Assembly: GCA_045597865.1 (NCBI GenBank)
Contig: JAZLKX010000049.1
Span: 1 to 12,328, forward strand
DNA from: Bacilli bacterium
GTDB taxonomy: Bacteria > Bacillota_I > Bacilli_A > RFN20 > CAG-826
DNA: 12,328 nt
Direction of reading: 5' to 3'
Shown: positions 6,001 to 12,328 of the stretch, in pieces
Layout: each line of letters opens with the position of its first letter
Numbering within the stretch: position 1 is the stretch's first letter
The notes under the pieces: model-generated
Told to the model about the DNA's origin: nothing
What the model saw: the letters and a program-made list of their open reading frames with translations, nothing else
Database searches by the model: none
Made by a program: the position numbers and the translations under genes

Positions 6001-7550
6001 ACTGTAATTGCTTGGTTTGCAGTCTTTTCTTTATATGTAATAACAACATTGGTGTCAGTAGTTTCCAAACTTCCTGATGTAGAGAAACTAAAATCACTTG
6101 CATGATCAGCATATGAAATATCTGCAGTTGAAGCATCATCATATGTTGCTGTAATCACTAATCCAGTTGGATCAAATGATTCACCTTCATAATATGTAAC
6201 CTTAGTAGGAGCAGTTTTAACAGCAATAGATTCAAGAACTTTTTTTGAAACTTCTGATCTATAGATATTTACCAGATTTCCGTTATCTTGGCCATAACTT
6301 CTAAATGTCGAATTATTGTAAGATCTTAATCTTGCATTGGTAACTCCGCTATACCATAAGTTTGCACTACTACCAGAAGAAGAATAAGTCCATTCTGAAC
6401 CTGTATCTTGAAAGGAAAGTTTTCCAGAAGAAGCCGCTGTTATAGTTAAATATTTAGTTGAGCTATCAATGCTTGCAGATAATTTAAAACCAGATGTTGT
6501 AACGCTAGCATCTAAAACACCGGTTTTGTCTTGAGAAATTAAAGGAACTTTATTAGTCGAATCAAATTCTCCACTAGCAAATGCTGTTGATTGACCATGA
6601 CCACTTGAAATTGAAGTGTTGAAGTAAGCACTATTATCGGTAGTCACTATAAGAACTTTATCTCCATCTTTAATATCAGAAGTTGAAGAAACTTTAGACC
6701 ATAAAGACTCACTAGGAGAACTTTGCTCTTTCCAAATAGCATAAACATCGACGTTTGCGTTATTAATAGTAACTGAAGTTATTCCTGTAGTTGCAGCTGA
6801 ATCGGTGTTCCATCCAACAAATTCATAACCACTACGAGTTGGTTTTGTTGCGCTTAATGTATGTTCGCCGTTAGAAAGGCCGGTATCAGAACCAGGCATT
6901 CCTGTAACTTCATCAGTTGTGTTTGTTAAATAATTGACTGAATATGTAGATGTAGGAGGCGTTGTCCCTTCTTCATATGTTATTCTAAACTCAACTTGAG
7001 AATTGTTGGCATTTGTAATTTGAAACCAAAAATATTTACAATTTGAGGTTAACTTGTTAGATGCATCGTAAATAGAATCAAGAGTAGATAAAGTAGCAGT
7101 ATACGTGTTAGCACCTGTAGAATAACTAGTAATTGGAGAATCACTAAACGTTACACCAACGGAAACTTTTGCTGACGCACCTTTATTTGCATAAATTTCA
7201 AATTTTGTAATTTTATTACCAATTGGGTCTTTATTGTAAATATATTTACCACTCTTTCCAATAAAAATGGCTTTGTCAGTAAATTTATTATCTCCAGTAG
7301 AAGTTTGATATTTAGCACTATCAGACATAGTAATTGTAAAATCACCATATTCAAAATCAGTATCTTCTGATAAACCAGTACTTGACAATTTCGATCCATC
7401 AATAATCAACTCTTTTGTGTCAGCAGCATTAACTTTAGCAATGTTGTTTAGTGCCTTTCCTAATGATCCAATCGCTGTGGCCCCTGCTTCTAAAACAAGT
7501 GCGCCACAAAGTATAAGAGTAGAAACAATCCTTTTTGTAATACTTTTCAT
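1..7550 (-). CDS. Giant secreted/surface multidomain adhesin-like protein, at least 2516 aa, 3' end outside the window. Contains an InlB B-repeat, two beta-rich modules, an OB-fold-like domain, about 10 Big_3-like repeats, one Big_2-like repeat and 11 divergent stalk repeats
   Basis: ATG at 7548-7550 with AAGGAG RBS at 7561-7566. Manual translation gives MKSITKRIVSTLILCGALVLEAGATAIG...KVNA/AD (signal-peptide-like). The same frame reads ...VYEDDRLESVDGFTISGYD at position 3, and the ORF track shows no stop-terminated ORF in this frame. Motifs include KPTRSGYEFVGWNT...VYAIWK (InlB B-repeat/Flg_new-like, ~6730-6947) and SIAVKTAPTKVTYYEGESFDPTGLVITATY (Big_3-like, ~6000-6240). Confidence 0.93.
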   Translation of the reverse strand, partial: MKSITKRIVSTLILCGALVLEAGATAIGSLGKALNNIAKVNAADTKELIIDGSKLSSTGLSEDTDFEYGDFTITMSDSAKYQTSTGDNKFTDKAIFIGKSGKYIYNKDPIGNKITKFEIYANKGASAKVSVGVTFSDSPITSYSTGANTYTATLSTLDSIYDASNKLTSNCKYFWFQITNANNSQVEFRITYEEGTTPPTSTYSVNYLTNTTDEVTGMPGSDTGLSNGEHTLSATKPTRSGYEFVGWNTDSAATTGITSVTINNANVDVYAIWKEQSSPSESLWSKVSSTSDIKDGDKVLIVTTDNSAYFNTSISSGHGQSTAFASGEFDSTNKVPLISQDKTGVLDASVTTSGFKLSASIDSSTKYLTITAASSGKLSFQDTGSEWTYSSSGSSANLWYSGVTNARLRSYNNSTFRSYGQDNGNLVNIYRSEVSKKVLESIAVKTAPTKVTYYEGESFDPTGLVITATYDDASTADISYADHASDFSFSTSGSLETTDTNVVITYKEKTANQAITVNSDTLNSITLGGSVSFNGSAWDLSGVTLTGHYVSGDRPITSFTPTTTTAVPTKSGTYDVSVSVSFGGKSDSKNYSVTVAKGLFESDPLTVAEAIQIANSHTNANVTDLYYVVGKLTNEDTDNPYNTTYGNFYMNDSGSKSDSKLTVYGVTETASAVSKNESGYWNFTNPKDFNTDGKATKGLTKGDKVLLKLRLYLFGGSTPEGDGLFIRKIVRTLSSIAVTNNPTNPQYSGKAFDKTGMVVTATYNDGSSEDVTDSVTFEPATLASDTTSVTIRYSDTITTTLTIDVLTLSKITIEGQTTKFRAGNTFTFDGNVYPWYTHSSGAAESKGAALESTEYTVSKSGTLSRGNGQEVVVTHTASSKTATYAIDVDYAYVTDISMDSSIELGLGGEATFNASVTPEIADQTVNYSIDTEQTTLDDSEYTLEGNKLTIDDDIAASGEIYVIATTVGKDAEGQSKTTSCKVTVTKAIIAQITSVTVGGTITATEQYVGKDFNYDGLTFTPVWSEGEHDEVTITGADIEWPELTNGMTSITGSYNTGSANLDVVASGFTVVEDYLNSIEIAGDMTNKTYYNNAEEWDFAGLTVAGKNASGDDATIVQESVEFTANLTPAEYLSTSADKLVVTATYGEKTDTIDIMGIVVNEYKLNKIEVTSNPTKTEYIIGEAFDETGLVVKATYSDGTSDTNFTGYSLDKSGIKMYEAGTYSVKVQADGVADTSFNVKYGVVTPQEGYDYWQKVTSDQTDWSGEYLIVYQDDSLNCTWTGVDAKACTVAIGDTSFDKDGNIVSAPTGATTITVASMTDGYSIKVNGGDNNGKYIYGTSGSNKTNFGTTASAASFVLEDDGVKITSNTSVLRYNSSDTWFRFYKSSTYTAQKPVQLYKHISQPAVEAELIKVNVSCAKSFKEGETLNISDLTISGLYNSGETESLTTGVTFSDGTTSKVLAAGENTLTLKYGEFTETFKISATALVKYDLSVDINADQAEYSVSPALTDGQLVEGKAYEITVTAKEGCVIDSVTATGASVSDNVVTITSASSDVSITVTSHELEMFDITDSTDTYATLVNTATQVKEGTTYESDVTFATGKELNSASVTMNGVEVTGAYSNGHIKVENVTGDLIITVTTKDVYYGIEYDFEDCSGVAIAPETDLPTSVVHNGTLSFKVEPDDGYGINKSRITVINDGQPKAFEYDPITGIVTIANITGDLSISATAFELANVTKDLGEGLAVLSETNPVSIGSSYNLLVSIEDETKEITNVSVTMDGEPVTDVWDETLGLVSIATVTGDIEITIETQTIQIPINANGNFTVDPTSADINSENITVTLTPDHGYDFFEWSIMYYTIGDDDTQHEFTGGTFTIDKLTEEINVYAYTDAVYYLDFDLTDLTYTSEFPTIVKDFDGFDITLEVSGDKSMYEIDMSTLVIEMGGVDITDDETLVSYNLNKANGKLYITLIPLKLTGDIKVSAARALKEFEVNVSGDTELVEVTGDLVITYGETGSVTFTPADHYHFVDNGVTVINSGLAEITLFSQDDGSVIVTFNTGVQGDISISVKVEHDTVSVTTGSLTNINFTFITIEHENVEHLTPIQGYFTPEFGYFRPSSITVTCYGEPVASSDYSYNKDTGAFSILAFGDIVISATGTQEQVGFSLVNTTEEGQATLETPYGETLDSGFTIDNKLVVPEGYVIESVVITMGGNELKGFNPADNSIYIYQISGDVVVTVTTRALNDYDVTVSGTGLDHAITNWTSGATVKEGSNAFYTFEAATGYNIVVTATGATVTHNNGVYTVSVSNAATDVAISVSATPIKVDVTVDVTNVECTITSGQVDYDSALTFKLTQNDNTFDYVYSVTMSGEPVDGIDGVYTIEHVTGEVVVTASATIIEVEGITADVVSSEVEYGHVFTVEDFEIVVIYNNGDTQRYECSDFEGYDETQVGEQSVKVINSDKELEAYIVITVKQSEIIHHIDAVTNFNDIEFGSDYDESSVTVFAVYEDDRLESVDGFTISGYD
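390..3090 (-). repeat. About 11 tandem divergent 72-90 aa beta-rich repeats ending in a 'VTGD(I/L/V)xIT'-like motif
   Basis: Repeat ends read manually: SASSDVSITV, NVTGDLIITV, NITGDLSISA, TVTGDIEITI, KLTEEINVYA, KLTGDIKVSA, GVQGDISISV, AFGDIVISA, QISGDVVVTV, NAATDVAISV, HVTGEVVVTA. Confidence 0.75.
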
Positions 7551-7560
7551 AACTCTTTTT

Positions 7561-7566
7561 CTCCTT
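7561..7566 (-). promoter_or_regulatory. Shine-Dalgarno sequence (AAGGAG) of the giant CDS
   Basis: Plus-strand ctcctt, 10 nt upstream of the ATG at 7550. Confidence 0.85.
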
Positions 7567-7590
7567 TACGTATTCTTTACGTTTTTTTAC

Positions 7591-7670
7591 ATACGCGACA
7601 ATAAAAAAAGCGCATAAACCTCTATATCATACTTTAGTATGAGTAGGAAATGCGCATTTATTTCGCGTAT
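7591..7670 (-). promoter_or_regulatory. 80-nt imperfect hairpin in the 5' leader with an embedded terminator-like stem and U7 tract (candidate attenuator)
   Basis: Nested inverted repeats ATACGCGA/TCGCGTAT, AATAAA/TTTATT, GCGCAT/ATGCGC, CCT/AGG and TCATACT/AGTATGA. On the minus strand the GCGCAU...AUGCGC stem is followed directly by UUUUUUU (7603-7609). Confidence 0.65.
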
Positions 7671-7672
7671 CA

Positions 7673-7701
7673 ACATACACCCATATTGTACGCTAATACG
7701 T
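7673..7701 (-). promoter_or_regulatory. Shared bipartite upstream motif, copy 1 (ACGTAT-N15-GTGTATGT)
   Basis: Plus-strand acatacac (7673-7680), 15 nt, atacgt (7696-7701). Boxes and spacing are identical at 12089-12117. Confidence 0.5.
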
Positions 7702-7733
7702 ATCAAATTAAAATAATTAATTATTATAATTTT

Positions 7734-7758
7734 AAAAACCACGGCCTTTTGACCGTGA
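7734..7758 (-). terminator. Rho-independent terminator of the 1404-aa gene
   Basis: Minus-strand UCACGGUC-AAAA-GGCCGUGG (8-bp stem with two G-U pairs) followed by UUUUU, about 30 nt after the tandem TAA TAA stops. Confidence 0.8.
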
Positions 7759-7786
7759 TTTATTAAGGGGTTTCTATTTAATATTA

Positions 7787-10700
7787 TTATTTAAGATGTT
7801 TACGTTTCTTAGCTCTTAAGCCAAGTGGAATACCAACACCACAGCCAACGCCAACAACTGCTGCTCCACCACAGACTGATGACAAGATAATAATACTTTG
7901 TTGTTGTGCTTGTTTATCCACAACTCTGATTGTTATTGTATCAGTTTTGTTGCCATCTACTGTTTCTACAGTAATTGTAGCAGTTCCTGGTGCAACACCT
8001 GTAACTTGTCCTCTTGCATCAACTGTTGCAATTTCTTTGTTTGATGAAGACCAAACTACATTTTTATTATCAGCATTTGCTGGATTAATAACTGCAGTTA
8101 AATCAAGTGTTTCTTGTGGGAGAATTGATTGAGTATTAACGTCTTTTCCATTTACTTGAATTGAGACTGACTCAACTGGATTAACTGGTGTTGGAGGAGG
8201 AGTTGGTTGATCACCTACTGTTACTTTGCATGTAGCAGTCTTTCCACCACATGATGCTGTAATTGTAGCAGTACCTTCTCCAATGCCTTTAACAGTTACT
8301 GCAGATGGTCCGGCACTTATAATTTGTGCAACAGAATCATCTGATGTTTCCCAATTAATGTGTCCTTTATCATCGGCATTATTTGGAAGTACAGTTGCGA
8401 CAATTTCAAATGTCTCATCAACATCAATTTTCTTACTTGTTATATCTAAAGATATAGATGTAACAGGAACTGGCGTAACAGATGCTTTAATTTTAATCTC
8501 ACATCTTGCAGTAAATCCACCATCTTCTGTCTTACAAGTAATGTAAACTGTCTTACCAGTTGATGCTGAAGCTTTGACGGTTACTTTACCACTACTATTT
8601 ACATCTGCAAGTTGAGGAGCGTTAGATTCCCAAGTTACATTCTTATTTGTAGCATTTGATGGATTAACAATTGCATTTAATTGGAATGTATCACCTGGTT
8701 TTAATTCTTTATAATCACAATCAAGGGAAACACCTGTAACTCTCACTACTTCACCTTGTTCAACGTGAACTGTACAAGTTGCTTTGTAGCCTTCTTTTTC
8801 GCCAGTGCCTTTTCCTTGTGTTTGGCCAGTAATGACAACATCACCAATACCTAAACCAGTAACTTCGCCTTTTGAACTTACTGTAGCAATTTCTGGATCA
8901 CTTGAGGACCACAAAACGGTTTTGTTTTTAGCGTCTGTAGGTGAAACAGTGCCAGTTATTGTGAATTTTTCACCTTGTTTGATTGTTTTTTCAGTTACAT
9001 CAATTGTGAGTCCTGTTGGTCTTTGAGAGACTGTTAATTCAGATGCGTCTGAGTAATAGCCATCATATGATGTTACTTTAATAGTAACTTTACCTGATTT
9101 ATATGAAGTTAAATCACCAACATGTGGATCTTCGAAGTTTGCAATTTCTGGATTAGATGAACTCCATGTAACTGGTTCTCCCTCTGGAGGTTCTTGAGTT
9201 GTTGTAAATGTATTTGTGTCATCAACCCATACTTCATATGTATTTTGCTTAATGAATGGTTGATAACCACCCACTACTGTAAATTTAAATGTAGCTGTAA
9301 CTTTGTTGCCTGATGTGCCATATGTAACTGTGCATGTCTTATCTCCATATGTATCAGATGCTGGAACATCTACTTCATAAGCACCAAGTGGTAACTTCTT
9401 TGTTGTATTATCATATTTTGCTTTAACAGTGATTCCAACCCAGTTGTATGGTTCGCCAAGTTCCACTGTTGTAGGCATACCTTCTGGAATTGAAACAGAA
9501 ATTGACTTAATTTCGTGTGAGAAATCTTTCGTCATGTCTCTGTAGAGCATAACGTCATAATCAACATTTGTTCCAACACCAAATTTACCGCTATCAGCGT
9601 TTAAATATATGTGTTTTGTTGGTTCGTTAACTGGGCAGATTTCCCAATAGTCATCAACCCAATCATTTTGAGATTCAACAAAGTTGCATGTGAATGAATT
9701 TGCAGTTGTTAGTTCTTGTGAAGTTGGAAGATAGATAACCCATGTTCCATCGAATTCACATTCATATTCACTCGAAGTTTCAACTGCAACTTCTGCACCT
9801 TTTGCGTAAAAGTCATAATCAACTGCTAAAGTGTTACTTGCAATAATTGCTTCTGCAGTTATTAAATCATTGTTCATGTAATTGTAGTAATAACCCCAGA
9901 ATGTCTCAGAGCCTTCTGAATATTCAGTAAAGTGAACCATTACGTTATTGCCGTCGATGCTATAAGGTAAATCAAATTCATAAAGATCTTCAAATTTGGT
10001 AGCTGTTTGTTTAGAAATATCTCCTAAATCAAGTGTTTTACCATTTGATCTTAAATAAGCACCATTGTATTCAAATGCGTATGTTCCACTATTAACACCT
10101 TGTTTAACTGTGAATTCCATTGCTGGAGATGGTAAATAGCCAAATGCTTGGGAACTAAGTTTACCATCAACCATTGCAATTTCTTGGCCGCCAGTAATGT
10201 TACCATCTTTTGCGCCAACAGTTGTACCAAGTGTGACTTTATCACCAATTTCAATCATGTTAGTGGCGAAATATTTAGCATGTTCAGGGGTTATTTCCTT
10301 TTCGAACTTAACTTCTGGATCATCTACCATAGAGACAACAATCTTGGTTGTGCTGCTATTAATTTTGGCTGGTGAGACATCAAATTCAGTATTTTTTAAT
10401 GTTTTAACTTCTTCGACTACACCATCAGAATAAGTAACTTTTACTTCTTCAATGGTTTCTTTTGGCATTTCACCAATTAAATATGTATCTCTTAAGCCTG
10501 TTACTACCATAGAACCAGCTTTTGGTCCTAAAACACTGATGCCATTGACTACAATGTCATATGCATCTTCTCCAGAAGTAAATGTTCCGTGAACTTGCGT
10601 TCCTGGAGTAAGGTCTCCCCAAACAATTTTATTTGTAATGTCAGCACTGTATCCATTTGTATAGTAGCCAGTAACTTTCATGTTAGTTGTAGAGAATTTT

Positions 10701-12001
10701 TCGCCAACATAATATTTTGTCTTTGTTGGAAGTTTATCAACAACATAGTCGTCAAATTCACCAGTTTCGAGGAACTTAACATAATTAGATGTTCCTTCAA
10801 ATGCATACCAAGTTTCTTCATGAACTGCTAATGAACGAGTCTTGCCTTTCTTTGTGAGTGTCGAAAACACATAGTTTGTATCTTTTATTGATACTGTCCA
10901 GGCATTAATTGCTTCATCACTAAGAGAAATCCTAGATTCTTTATCATCACTTTCGTGACCTGGAATATCGCGGTTATATGCTAAATATTGTTCACCATTA
11001 GTGACGTAATATGAGTTATCACCTTGGTAAGCTTTTTCTAATGTCCAAAGATTTGATTCATCAGAGAAGTCGACATTACCAATGTATGATAAATCACTAC
11101 CTAGCATAGCTAAGCCTGAACCTTCAGCAATAAAGTATTTATCTTTTGCAAGAATGTTATATTGATAATCTGTAACAGTAATTGTACATGTTGCGTCTGC
11201 TTTTCCATCTGCAACACATTTAACTATTGCGGATCCTTCATAATTAAATGTCACTACGGTGCTATTGCCTGTTGTTGTACTAAGAGAAACATATTCGCTG
11301 CCTTCTTCAATGGACCAGACATATGACTCAGGGACATATGAATCTTTTCCAGAAGCAGTTAATGTAAATGTAGTTCCAACATTTTGTTGTACTTCAGTCT
11401 TATTTAATTGAATTTCTTTAGCAACTCCACCTTTTCTATAGATTTGGCCGTTACTCATCGTGTTCTTGTAGTTTGAGAAACGTCCACCTCCACTAGGATT
11501 ATATTGAATATATCCATAGTTTGTATTTGTATTTTGAATGGTTGCAGCATATGTTGATGAGTCAATACTTACATTCCATGTTGCAGATGCACCAGTTTTT
11601 GTAGAGTAAGACATGTGATTAGTTGGTGCAGCATTAGCGGCAATTGTTCTTGTACCATAGGTAAAAGTATAAGCACCACCAGAAACACCAACAGTTAATG
11701 GCTTAATGTTTGAATTATCAAAATATAAATATTCATCCTCGAAGTATGCATCATAAACGTTTAAATAAGCATTCGATTCGCCAGTCAAGGCTCCGTTGGC
11801 CTTAATTGTGTCTCCACTATGATAGACGAATAAAACAACGTCTCCGGCTTTTAAAGAGCTGGCATCCGTAACAAGTGAGTATAAATCACCAGTTGCAGAA
11901 GCCGTAACCCCCGCTGCTTCAAATGCTGCAGGTGCTGCGGCAAGGCCTAAAACTCCTCCAAGTAAGAGGAATGGTAAGATTCTTAATAGTTTACGTTTCA
12001 T
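7787..12001 (-). CDS. 1404-aa membrane-anchored surface protein with bacterial Ig-like domains (Big_2-like x6, Big_3-like x~3) and beta-rich putative binding modules
   Basis: Long ORF with GAGGT RBS at 12008-12012 and signal peptide MKRKLLRILPFLLLGGVLGLAAAPAA. It has five tandem C-terminal Big_2-like repeats (WSSSNPEIA, WSSSDPEIATV, WESNAPQLADV, WETSDDSVAQI, WSSSNKEIATV), Big_3-like PTKTKYYVGEKFSTTNMKVTGYY, a Pro linker PTPPPTPVNP, a C-terminal hydrophobic helix and the basic tail RAKKRKHLK. Confidence 0.95.
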   Translation of the reverse strand: MKRKLLRILPFLLLGGVLGLAAAPAAFEAAGVTASATGDLYSLVTDASSLKAGDVVLFVYHSGDTIKANGALTGESNAYLNVYDAYFEDEYLYFDNSNIKPLTVGVSGGAYTFTYGTRTIAANAAPTNHMSYSTKTGASATWNVSIDSSTYAATIQNTNTNYGYIQYNPSGGGRFSNYKNTMSNGQIYRKGGVAKEIQLNKTEVQQNVGTTFTLTASGKDSYVPESYVWSIEEGSEYVSLSTTTGNSTVVTFNYEGSAIVKCVADGKADATCTITVTDYQYNILAKDKYFIAEGSGLAMLGSDLSYIGNVDFSDESNLWTLEKAYQGDNSYYVTNGEQYLAYNRDIPGHESDDKESRISLSDEAINAWTVSIKDTNYVFSTLTKKGKTRSLAVHEETWYAFEGTSNYVKFLETGEFDDYVVDKLPTKTKYYVGEKFSTTNMKVTGYYTNGYSADITNKIVWGDLTPGTQVHGTFTSGEDAYDIVVNGISVLGPKAGSMVVTGLRDTYLIGEMPKETIEEVKVTYSDGVVEEVKTLKNTEFDVSPAKINSSTTKIVVSMVDDPEVKFEKEITPEHAKYFATNMIEIGDKVTLGTTVGAKDGNITGGQEIAMVDGKLSSQAFGYLPSPAMEFTVKQGVNSGTYAFEYNGAYLRSNGKTLDLGDISKQTATKFEDLYEFDLPYSIDGNNVMVHFTEYSEGSETFWGYYYNYMNNDLITAEAIIASNTLAVDYDFYAKGAEVAVETSSEYECEFDGTWVIYLPTSQELTTANSFTCNFVESQNDWVDDYWEICPVNEPTKHIYLNADSGKFGVGTNVDYDVMLYRDMTKDFSHEIKSISVSIPEGMPTTVELGEPYNWVGITVKAKYDNTTKKLPLGAYEVDVPASDTYGDKTCTVTYGTSGNKVTATFKFTVVGGYQPFIKQNTYEVWVDDTNTFTTTQEPPEGEPVTWSSSNPEIANFEDPHVGDLTSYKSGKVTIKVTSYDGYYSDASELTVSQRPTGLTIDVTEKTIKQGEKFTITGTVSPTDAKNKTVLWSSSDPEIATVSSKGEVTGLGIGDVVITGQTQGKGTGEKEGYKATCTVHVEQGEVVRVTGVSLDCDYKELKPGDTFQLNAIVNPSNATNKNVTWESNAPQLADVNSSGKVTVKASASTGKTVYITCKTEDGGFTARCEIKIKASVTPVPVTSISLDITSKKIDVDETFEIVATVLPNNADDKGHINWETSDDSVAQIISAGPSAVTVKGIGEGTATITASCGGKTATCKVTVGDQPTPPPTPVNPVESVSIQVNGKDVNTQSILPQETLDLTAVINPANADNKNVVWSSSNKEIATVDARGQVTGVAPGTATITVETVDGNKTDTITIRVVDKQAQQQSIIILSSVCGGAAVVGVGCGVGIPLGLRAKKRKHLK
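7915..9260 (-). repeat. Five tandem Big_2-like (Ig-like group 2) protein repeats
   Basis: Recurrent V(T/E)(G/S)(V/I)S(L/I)...L.A.V.P.NA.NK.V.W.S......A.V...G.V...G...IT pattern in the translation. Boundaries are approximate. Confidence 0.85.
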
Positions 12002-12007
12002 TTTGTT

Positions 12008-12012
12008 ACCTC
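12008..12012 (-). promoter_or_regulatory. Shine-Dalgarno sequence (GAGGT) of the 1404-aa gene
   Basis: Plus-strand acctc, 6 nt upstream of the ATG at 12001. Confidence 0.8.
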
Positions 12013-12014
12013 AG

Positions 12015-12056
12015 AAAAAATGTGGTTAATCCTTTTAAAAAGTAGATTAATCACAT
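12015..12056 (-). promoter_or_regulatory. Terminator-like hairpin plus U-tract in the 5' leader of the 1404-aa gene (candidate attenuator)
   Basis: Minus-strand AUGUG-A-UUAAUC...GAUUAA-C-CACAU (11 bp with one A-C mismatch) running into a U6 tract. It lies between the promoter and the RBS. Confidence 0.55.
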
Positions 12057-12079
12057 ATCGTATTTTTCATAACGTGTAT

Positions 12080-12108
12080 ATTATACGGACATACACAATT
12101 TATTGCAA
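12080..12108 (-). promoter_or_regulatory. Sigma70/SigA-type promoter of the 1404-aa gene
   Basis: Minus-strand TTGCAA (12103-12108), 17 nt, TATAAT (12080-12085). Predicted start near 12073. Confidence 0.75.
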
Positions 12109-12117
12109 ATCATACGT
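12089..12117 (-). promoter_or_regulatory. Shared bipartite upstream motif, copy 2 (ACGTAT-N15-GTGTATGT), straddling the -35 box
   Basis: Plus-strand acatacac (12089-12096), 15 nt, atacgt (12112-12117). Confidence 0.5.
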
Positions 12118-12151
12118 TGTAGATGTATTGCGTTTTTATCGCGAAATTACC

Positions 12152-12180
12152 TTGATAAAAACTTAAGTTTTTGTTATAAT
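12152..12180 (+). promoter_or_regulatory. Strong divergent sigma70/SigA-type promoter with extended -10
   Basis: TTGATA (12152-12157), 17 nt, TATAAT (12175-12180), with TG at 12172-12173 giving TGnTATAAT. Confidence 0.8.
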
Positions 12181-12186
12181 AATAGT

Positions 12187-12328
12187 GTCAATAATTATTA
12201 AAATATCCGGCCAACAGTAGAACCTAGTCTCTACTGCCCGACAGGTAACAAGAATAGATATAAATTGTAATTACTACTGGTAGATTGTATTGTTTGGATC
12301 TATCAATGTGGAAAGCATCGCCCAGAAG
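12187..12328 (+). ncRNA. Candidate structured 5' leader or small RNA, family not recognised, truncated by the window edge
   Basis: Follows the strong promoter. Hairpins at 12215-12236 (CAGTAGA/TCTACTG) and 12278-12305 (9 bp). No convincing RBS plus start codon in about 140 nt. Confidence 0.35.

Follow-up and report, generated by a model that had tools for sequence, protein, structure and literature searches.

In the pyrBI and trp leaders of Escherichia coli, the attenuator terminator hairpin is overlapped by a short open reading frame (ORF) that starts upstream of it, and the variable surface lipoprotein genes of mycoplasmas join a conserved 5' region to a variable body. The LoaP system is described in PMC12691694 by four features: a NusG paralogue, a hairpin with a UNCG loop, a terminator in the leader, and additional terminators inside the operon. 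We analyzed a 12,328-nt stretch of DNA from a Bacilli bacterium, the whole of contig C49 of its assembly and hereafter the window, in which two giant surface-protein genes (gene 1 and gene 2) lie in tandem on the minus strand, each behind a leader hairpin with a U-tract. A preliminary description had proposed that a shared upstream motif, ACGTAT-N15-GTGTATGT, together with the leader terminators, formed a co-regulation system licensing both genes through a factor encoded elsewhere in the genome.

The two hairpin-plus-U-tract elements proved to be conserved and genuine, and a co-regulation system built on the shared motif was not supported. We give an even chance to the reading that the elements are two independent, cis-acting leader attenuators, whose read-through RNA would fold into a rod closed by the 5' end.

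Results

Terminator-like leaders are conserved with each giant gene

The assembly containing the window (G000; 1.74 Mb, 58 contigs, low GC, 96.9% complete) was compared with 36 others, giving a set of 37 genus genomes. Clear counterparts of both upstream regions were found in two of the other 36 (G008 and G017), each approximately 87% identical to G000 at the nucleotide level in a housekeeping region. At both window genes, the elements listed in the preliminary description were present on the minus strand in the order claimed. A terminator-like hairpin and U-tract lay between the promoter and the ribosome-binding site (RBS) of each gene and was conserved in all three species, which makes the proposed control at the level of the leader plausible. 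The genes were also correctly recognized as encoding giant surface proteins, both with a signal peptide and Ig-like domains. The gene 1 product combines its signal peptide with five Big_2 domains, a Big_3 domain, a C-terminal membrane anchor, and a KKRK tail; that of gene 2 combines a signal peptide with Flg_new and Big_3. The features of gene 1 were the following.

12001-7787, minus strand: gene 1 coding sequence, 1404 amino acids, ATG at 12001
12089-12117, minus strand: motif copy 1, with ACGTAT at 12117-12112 and GTGTATGT at 12096-12089
12080-12108, minus strand: gene 1 promoter, TTGCAA-17 nt-TATAAT, 10 of 12 consensus matches, both hexamers invariant in all three species
12047-12070, minus strand: gene 1 mini-ORF MKNTICD, seven codons, starting 10 nt after the -10 box, stop codon in the 5' arm of the hairpin, open in all three species, translation predicted
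12063-12059, minus strand: ATACG, just before the hairpin
12015-12056, minus strand: gene 1 leader hairpin (12056-12020) and U-tract (12019-12015), about -8.4 to -8.9 kcal/mol
12012-12009, minus strand: gene 1 RBS, GAGG
11900-12119, minus strand: conserved 5' module of gene 1 (promoter, leader, and first 34 codons), 90.5% nucleotide identity to G008
7734-7757, minus strand: gene 1 3' terminator, hairpin at 7757-7740 followed by GTTTTT, -9.9 kcal/mol, T5

Those of gene 2 were the following.

7550-3, minus strand: gene 2 coding sequence, more than 2516 amino acids, ATG at 7550, cut by the contig end
7673-7701, minus strand: motif copy 2, with ACGTAT at 7701-7696 and GTGTATGT at 7680-7673
7685-7690, minus strand: putative gene 2 -10 box, TACAAT (TATACT in G017, TATAAT in G008), with a weak -35
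7670-7666, minus strand: gene 2 ATACG
7665-7680, minus strand: small 5' hairpin GUGUAU-GUUG-AUACGC, competing with the outer helix of the rod
7603-7655, minus strand: gene 2 leader hairpin (7655-7610) and U7 (7609-7603), GC-rich base GCGCAU/AUGCGC, -15.1 kcal/mol
7591-7670, minus strand: predicted long rod, in which AUACGCG and an A-rich strand (7670-7656) pair with the U-tract and CGCGUAU (7609-7591) and enclose the hairpin
7568-7582, minus strand: small hairpin ACGUA-AAGAA-UACGU, just before the RBS
7566-7561, minus strand: gene 2 RBS, AAGGAG
7422-7738, minus strand: conserved 5' module of gene 2 (AT-rich upstream stretch, promoter, leader, and first 43 codons), 91.8% nucleotide identity to G017 and 73.9% to G008

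Transcript starts were predicted from -10 boxes only, in every leader considered here. The distance from the U-tract to the RBS of gene 1 is about 3 to 6 nt, and since only some 6 nt are available there, the gene 1 promoter must fire through the hairpin. For gene 2, the hexamer at 7690-7685 was the sole -10-like hexamer common to all three upstream regions in an alignment read by eye; the consensus scan did not list it because its -35 is weak.

Both hairpin cores folded better than dinucleotide shuffles (z of about -3.4 each), as did the whole leaders (z from -2.6 to -3.3). In gene 1, the stem and a tract of U6 or U7 were kept in all three species, and two compensatory pairs adjoin the loop. 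In gene 2, a GC-based stem and U6-U7 were likewise kept in three of three, with one pair changed on both sides (U-A to C-G; CCU/AGG to CCC/GGG); in G008, a register shift yields a stronger stem. For reference, we scanned 1397 gene calls and collected 423 terminator-like hairpins that followed a stop codon at a distance of at most 90 nt. The gene 2 hairpin was stronger than 80% of these and has the form of an intrinsic terminator, with a stable stem, a GC-rich base, and U7 directly after it. As an intrinsic terminator, the gene 1 hairpin is marginal (-8.4 kcal/mol, U5-6, AU-rich base).

The leaders, 60 to 130 nt long, are unrelated to each other. Covariance models built for gene 1 (R1) and gene 2 (R2) matched with E values below 1e-20 only in G000, G008, and G017 of the 37 genomes, with one copy per genome, and the next best match at another locus had an E value of 0.015 for R1 and 0.11 for R2. 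Weaker R2 matches fell on the opposite strand of its own loci in G017 and G000 (E values of 3e-4 and 3e-3, respectively). Neither leader recurred elsewhere in G000 or in 34 of the 37 genus genomes. A search of Rfam 15 with positions 7400-12328 gave no credible match at E values up to 10; the four chance-level matches were far below gathering scores, and none fell on a leader hairpin. The orthologous leaders were likewise without an Rfam match, and a T-box, serving as the positive control, was found in two of four other leaders tested. Two lipoprotein-like genes separate the gene 1 and gene 2 orthologues in G008, where gene 2 nevertheless retains its leader, which indicates that each leader belongs to, and travels with, its own gene.

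The region upstream of a distant relative of gene 1 in G009 has a long hairpin approximately 90 nt before the start codon but could not be aligned. Two pattern scans of metagenome contigs for leader variants, one with the RBS and start of gene 1 and one with the U-tract region of gene 2, returned no stretches. Among metagenome contigs of relatives, the U-tracts of both leaders vary in length by one base (T6 or T7; window positions 12014 and 7603), as they do among the three genomes. A search for sequencing runs found 16, one of them on record as RNA (X16, 5% of sampled words), and contigs of X16, X1, X2, and X8 were compared with the window. RNA-library contigs of a relative covered 7415-7598 and 7864-8743, with none in the bin 7636-7803; these are assembled contigs, in which transcript starts, ends, or coverage drops would not be visible.

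The layout recurs before other giant genes

Gene calling was crude, taking only ORFs of at least 100 amino acids (1413 including gene 2), and upstream scans were restricted to the 731 genes with an upstream gap of at least 100 nt. Within this set, a terminator-like hairpin at most 70 nt before the start codon was present in 16 of 41 genes of at least 800 amino acids, against 108 of 690 others (Fisher p 4e-4). When four leaders were tested against Rfam, T-box leaders were confirmed before two tRNA-synthetase genes, so the scan does detect true leader terminators.

On contig C3, two giant lipoprotein genes in tandem (1484 and 1839 amino acids) show the same layout, with leader regions at 9600-9890 and 14340-14595 (L062, L065, L081). 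Each has a promoter and a hairpin of -20 kcal/mol with a U-tract 36 to 38 nt before the start codon; the second gene also has a separate upstream terminator. The two C3 leaders are paralogous (81% identical) and unrelated to both window leaders, and they constitute a third leader family, with two conserved copies in G017 and one in G008, for five sequences in all. The consensus rod of this family contains 29 pairs, four of them with compensatory changes, and the C3 leaders had no matching family in Rfam. At the predicted transcript start, all five sequences share a nearly invariant block of some 20 nt that contains TTATGA and TACGAAAC.

Read-through RNA is predicted to fold into a closed rod

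The consensus fold of both window leaders did not stop at the U-tract, which is itself paired with an A-rich strand on the 5' side; close to the predicted 5' end, the structure is sealed by an outer helix. For gene 2, AUACGCG (7670-7664) and CGCGUAU (7597-7591) make up this helix, with outer pairs that are kept in all three species and mostly invariant. Only read-through RNA could form these outer helices. In the consensus folds of the gene 1, gene 2, and C3 leaders alike, the bases that adjoin the predicted starts, as placed from the -10 boxes, are paired.

Such rods could be 5' stabilizers and nothing else, base-pairing the 5' end of very long mRNAs against RNase J and other 5'-end-dependent decay, with no useful termination, in the manner of the 5' stem-loops of the aprE, ompA, and papA messages. 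In all three leader families, the fold passes the U-tract and its closing helix lies near the predicted 5' end in read-through RNA only, and the gene 1 hairpin would make a weak terminator. G000 also carries two RNase J genes, which makes 5' protection relevant, and one RNase III gene. Precedents in the reference list of PMC3997798 are aprE (Hambraeus 2002), the work of Emory 1992, and papA (Bricker and Belasco 1999). However, the run of six to seven U residues that immediately follows a GC-based stem in every orthologue is the signature of a terminator, which a stabilizer does not need. The starts on which the closing helices are placed are themselves predictions from -10 boxes, and the outer helices are mostly invariant and thus offer no covariation in favor of this explanation. 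We regard stabilization alone as unlikely, if credible.

For gene 2 only, a different arrangement was considered, in which the upstream promoter and hairpin would constitute a short RNA gene of their own or serve behind gene 1 as a back-up terminator and insulator, and the true promoter would lie between the U-tract and the RBS. A perfect TATAAT does follow the hairpin in G008, approximately 28 nt before the start codon, but G000 and G017 have TAAAAA and TATATA/TATAAA there, without the final T of a -10 box. The outer helix also speaks against this arrangement, as it joins sequence flanking the hairpin on either side and is conserved in three of three species. The modest gene 1 3' terminator (-9.9 kcal/mol with T5) is in its favor, yet the G008 element lies approximately 2 kb from gene 1, behind other genes, and so is not the terminator of gene 1. 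Gene 1, moreover, leaves no space for such a promoter, and the arrangement is inapplicable there. We consider it very unlikely.

Short reading frames run from the predicted 5' ends into the hairpins

An ATG lies 8 to 13 nt after the -10 box in the leaders of gene 1, gene 2, and both C3 genes, and each frame runs into the hairpin. In the gene 1 mini-ORF, codon 4 has undergone one synonymous (ACG to ACA) and one non-synonymous (ACG to TTG) substitution. The gene 2 mini-ORF has 14 codons in G017 and G008, with its stop in the loop, and 29 codons in G000. In the C3 family, it has 14 to 17 codons in all five sequences, including a change of TAA to TAG that preserves the stop. Genome-wide, 32 of 1407 gene calls were candidates for leaderless initiation, lacking a Shine-Dalgarno-like sequence and having a -10-like box 5 to 9 nt before the start codon, which indicates that leaderless initiation may be in use. 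Examples with a near-perfect TATAAT are C16:37137, C16:40150, and C25:334968 (minus strand).

These frames raise the possibility of ribosome-coupled attenuation, in which a ribosome on the tiny 5' ORF would enter the 5' arm of the hairpin and block the terminator, so that the giant gene would be transcribed only if translation keeps pace. Leaderless short-ORF attenuators are reported for mycobacteria in bioRxiv 10.1101/834739. Consistent with such coupling are the position of the ATG in the four leaders, the frames that stay open in every leader sequence (three of three for gene 1, three of three for gene 2, and five of five for C3), and the leaderless candidates among the gene calls. On the other hand, chance alone should produce short ORFs in AT-rich leaders, and the pattern was noticed post hoc. 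The ORFs lack a Shine-Dalgarno sequence and depend on predicted transcript starts, the families encode dissimilar peptides, G000 does not share the stop position that the gene 2 ORF has in the other two species, and substitutions are few, with one synonymous and one non-synonymous in gene 1. Ribosome coupling thus appears quite unlikely.

A broader form of the same idea would, for this small-genome gut lineage with no Rho and one sigma factor, replace a common factor by a common design: a near-leaderless mini-ORF would run into an intrinsic terminator, a 4- to 8-kb adhesin gene would be transcribed only with a ribosome coupled to the polymerase, and the closed rod would then shield the message, three unrelated leader families having converged on this arrangement. 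We rate this proposal, too, as decidedly improbable.

A regulon defined by the shared motif is not supported

The composite ACGTAT-N15-GTGTATGT was indeed present before both genes. The exact composite was confined to 2 sites in the 1.74 Mb, where base composition predicts 0.023; this comparison overstates its significance, because the composite was picked out once both regions were known to share it. No further sites in the genome appeared when the spacer was relaxed to 13-17 nt. When both upstream regions were shuffled 2000 times with dinucleotides preserved, an exact 8-mer together with an exact match of at least 6 nt on one diagonal within 30 nt arose in 159 shuffles. Taken alone, GTGTATGT was at background (66 observed, 68 expected), and ACGTAT was under-represented (546 observed, 1189 expected), a deficit that is expected in a CpG-poor genome. 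The two upstream regions are not paralogous; their best ungapped 29-nt window matched at 20 of 29 positions, was AT-rich, and lay away from the motif.

Comparison with the orthologues showed that one half of the motif is mutated in both orthologues of each gene, whereas the gene 1 promoter boxes alongside are invariant. The gene 1 motif reads CCGTAT...GTGTATGC in G008 and ACGTAT...GCGTGTGT in G017; in the gene 2 orthologues, GTGTATGT is kept and ACGTAT is replaced by GCGTAC and GCATAT. The ATACG of gene 1 reads ATTTG in G008 and ATACA in G017. The placement of the motif also differs. In gene 1, ACGTAT lies 3 nt upstream of the -35 box and GTGTATGT within the promoter spacer; in gene 2, ACGTAT lies upstream of the putative -10 box and GTGTATGT just downstream of it, at the predicted transcript start. 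Neither conserved nor alike in placement, the motif is unlike the site of a single regulator and is most likely a coincidence of two AT-rich regions.

We nevertheless weighed a trans-acting antitermination factor or DNA-binding regulator that would recognize the motif, ATACG, or both, and license the two genes, and perhaps others, as a regulon. The restriction of the composite to these two genomic sites is in its favor, as is the density of CGTAT/ATACG words upstream (5 in 160 nt for gene 2, 3 for gene 1). Terminator-like hairpins are present in both leaders, and leader terminators overcome by the NusG paralogue LoaP are described for long operons in PMC12691694. Against such a regulator stand the equal block pairs in 159 of 2000 shuffles, the mutated motif halves beside invariant promoter boxes, and the unequal placement of the motif, within the spacer for gene 1 but past the -10 box for gene 2. 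Most CGTAT/ATACG words are arms of inverted repeats making RNA helices. The regulon inferred in the preliminary description likewise found no footing, as the genome held no third composite site, GTGTATGT was at background, and neither leader recurred.

The search for the factor itself was carried out in the 96.9% complete assembly. Of the families that had been named, only a single, housekeeping-size NusG was found: PF02357 gave one match, a 192-aa ORF on contig C28, with controls positive in 10 of 14 genomes. CAT-RBD (PF03123) had no match in G000, its controls being positive in 4 of 14 genomes, and ANTAR (PF03861) had none in G000 or in any of the 14 control genomes. No LytTR protein was found in the G000 assembly. 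The Sigma70_r2 proteins of G000 were one of cellular size (447 amino acids) and a 204-aa ORF on contig C52 (GC 39%), and no extra sigma factor of cellular size was present. Rho (PF07497) was not found in the assembly.

Within the two coding sequences, no strong terminators of a kind to require processive antitermination were found; there was one weak match in gene 1 and six in gene 2, with interrupted T runs, none reaching 6 T. Neither leader contains a hairpin with a UNCG loop; the predicted loops are GUUG, UAAA, AAGAA, and one of 11 nt, and an ops-like element, the recruiting signal for RfaH, was not scanned for. Taken together, we consider a shared regulator highly improbable.

Several observations concern the same sequence words. 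Most of the CGTAT/ATACG copies form the two arms of inverted repeats folding into RNA helices, including the 8-bp palindrome ATACGTAT at 7703-7696, and only two of the copies before gene 2 survive in G008. A looser word, TATG-N2-5-TACG-A, seen near the predicted starts of the gene 1, gene 2, and C3 transcripts, was rejected; of its 86 genomic matches, 27 were intergenic and most had no connection with surface genes, and the word was absent from both gene 1 orthologues. As a whole, the transcription toolkit of G000 is very reduced, with no Rho, a single NusG, and one cellular-size protein of the sigma-70 family.

Conserved 5' modules precede variable protein bodies

Nucleotide similarity to the orthologues had sharp limits. 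For gene 1, it spanned 12119-11900 to G008 (90.5%) and 12328-11905 to G017 (88%); for gene 2, it spanned 7738-7422 to G017 (91.8%) and 7738-7455 to G008 (73.9%). Beyond about residues 34 to 45, protein identity fell to 41% (gene 1, G008), 30% (gene 1, G017), and 31% (gene 2, G008). The body of the G017 gene 2 protein is unrelated after about residue 45, with no similarity over the next 490 or so residues. Judged from these alignments, the arrangement looks like a fixed expression and secretion cassette, with swapping or fast turnover of the exposed body behind it.

The G008 orthologue of gene 1 is split (L002 6483-6815, contig C18): a 110-aa ORF with the signal peptide overlaps, in another frame, the start of the 1662-aa main ORF, through either a frameshift or an assembly error. 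Upstream of gene 1, a strong divergent promoter (TTGATA-17-TATAAT with TG, 11 of 12 matches; window 12152-12328, plus strand) is directed away from the gene. The sequence that it enters is conserved with G017, where a COG3943 RNA (RF02941, 73 bits, above the gathering score; L015 1152-1256) lies just past the position at which the present contig ends and is followed by two short ORFs. Three other giant proteins of G000 (1960 to 2857 amino acids; C1:107868, C18:55931 on the minus strand, and C25:104613) share a near-identical signal peptide (…FLKKL…LGFVMTLGVGAAGYA…). They had no leader hairpin in the scan and form a separate surface-gene family with a conserved 5' end.

Discussion

With Rho absent and a single sigma factor of cellular size, intrinsic terminators are a likely layer of control in this bacterium. 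In the attenuator reading, each giant gene would be transcribed separately from its own sigma-70-type promoter, through its own structured leader acting in cis on its own message. Polymerase leaving the promoter would often stop at the hairpin and U-tract, so that output of the costly protein would be low or conditional. A transcript that reads through would fold into the long rod, its A-rich 5' strand paired with the U-tract and its outer helix closing over the 5' end. The rod may additionally shield the long mRNA from 5' decay, a protection that we infer. The elements, their conservation, and their uniqueness are matters of direct observation.

Several points weigh against this reading. Termination and the transcript starts at both leaders are predictions made from sequence. 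The gene 1 hairpin is weak, stronger than only 15% of the 423 terminator-like hairpins at gene 3' ends. The leaders are known from three closely related species only, and most of their pairs are invariant, hence uninformative on structure. No alternative antiterminator fold that would disrupt either terminator stem was found. The enrichment of hairpins before large genes is also less clear than its p value suggests: the 16 large genes include three tRNA-synthetase genes and several whose hairpins are terminators of upstream genes, and a stricter leader-type rule combined with a rough signal-peptide filter gave 5 of 19 against 84 of 712 (p 0.07), the signal-peptide rule having missed both C3 lipoproteins and the gene calls being crude. 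The composite motif is rare genome-wide (2 against 0.023). The 5 copies of CGTAT/ATACG in the 160 nt before gene 2 (7540-7699) are tied for the densest in the genome, a level reached at just 66 of 1.73 million scanned positions, which fall at 2 loci, and this density leaves room for a protein site. The chief alternatives to the attenuator reading are stabilization of the 5' end alone and attenuation coupled to a ribosome.

Should these leaders prove to attenuate transcription, very expensive surface proteins would be metered by cis-acting RNA alone in a bacterium nearly devoid of classical regulators. The leaders mark a sharply bounded module of expression and secretion with a rapidly changing body, which bears on surface variation in uncultured gut bacteria. 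The negative outcome matters as well, as a striking motif shared by two neighboring AT-rich promoters dissolved under orthologue and shuffle tests.

Compared with the LoaP-dependent dfn and mln operons of Bacillus velezensis as described in PMC12691694, the window genes share a promoter followed by a leader intrinsic terminator before a long and costly unit, in a low-GC Gram-positive lineage. Unlike that system, they have no NusG paralogue in the assembly, no UNCG-tetraloop hairpin, and no strong intragenic terminators, so that one of the four features given there for LoaP is present; their leaders are also short, 60 to 130 nt against the 417 nt given for dfn. With the classical attenuators (pyrBI, trp, and the leaderless mycobacterial ORFs reported in 10.1101/834739), they share a leader terminator hairpin overlapped by a short ORF. 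The window leaders differ in having no visible antiterminator hairpin and mini-ORFs without a signaling codon bias, with translation that is predicted, and in preceding genes for adhesin-like surface proteins and not for biosynthetic enzymes.

The 5' stem-loop stabilizers (aprE of Bacillus subtilis, ompA and papA of E. coli; references listed in PMC3997798) resemble the window leaders in having a structured leader directly before the strong RBS of a secreted or surface gene, with the predicted 5' end paired. Those stabilizers need no U-tract, whereas the window leaders have a conserved U6-U7, and their 5' ends are predicted. T-box and riboswitch leaders in Rfam likewise place terminators 20 to 60 nt before the start codon, and G000 itself has a T-box before two synthetase genes. 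The window leaders, however, are single rods, with no multi-stem ligand pocket and no Rfam match.

In contrast to the mycoplasma variable lipoprotein genes, the window modules are present in a single copy per genome, and the searches showed no sign of invertible elements, repeat tracts, or silent cassettes. The likeness lies in the division of the gene: promoter, leader, and signal peptide are 88 to 92% identical in nucleotide sequence between species, and the exposed body is 30 to 41% identical in amino acid sequence or replaced.

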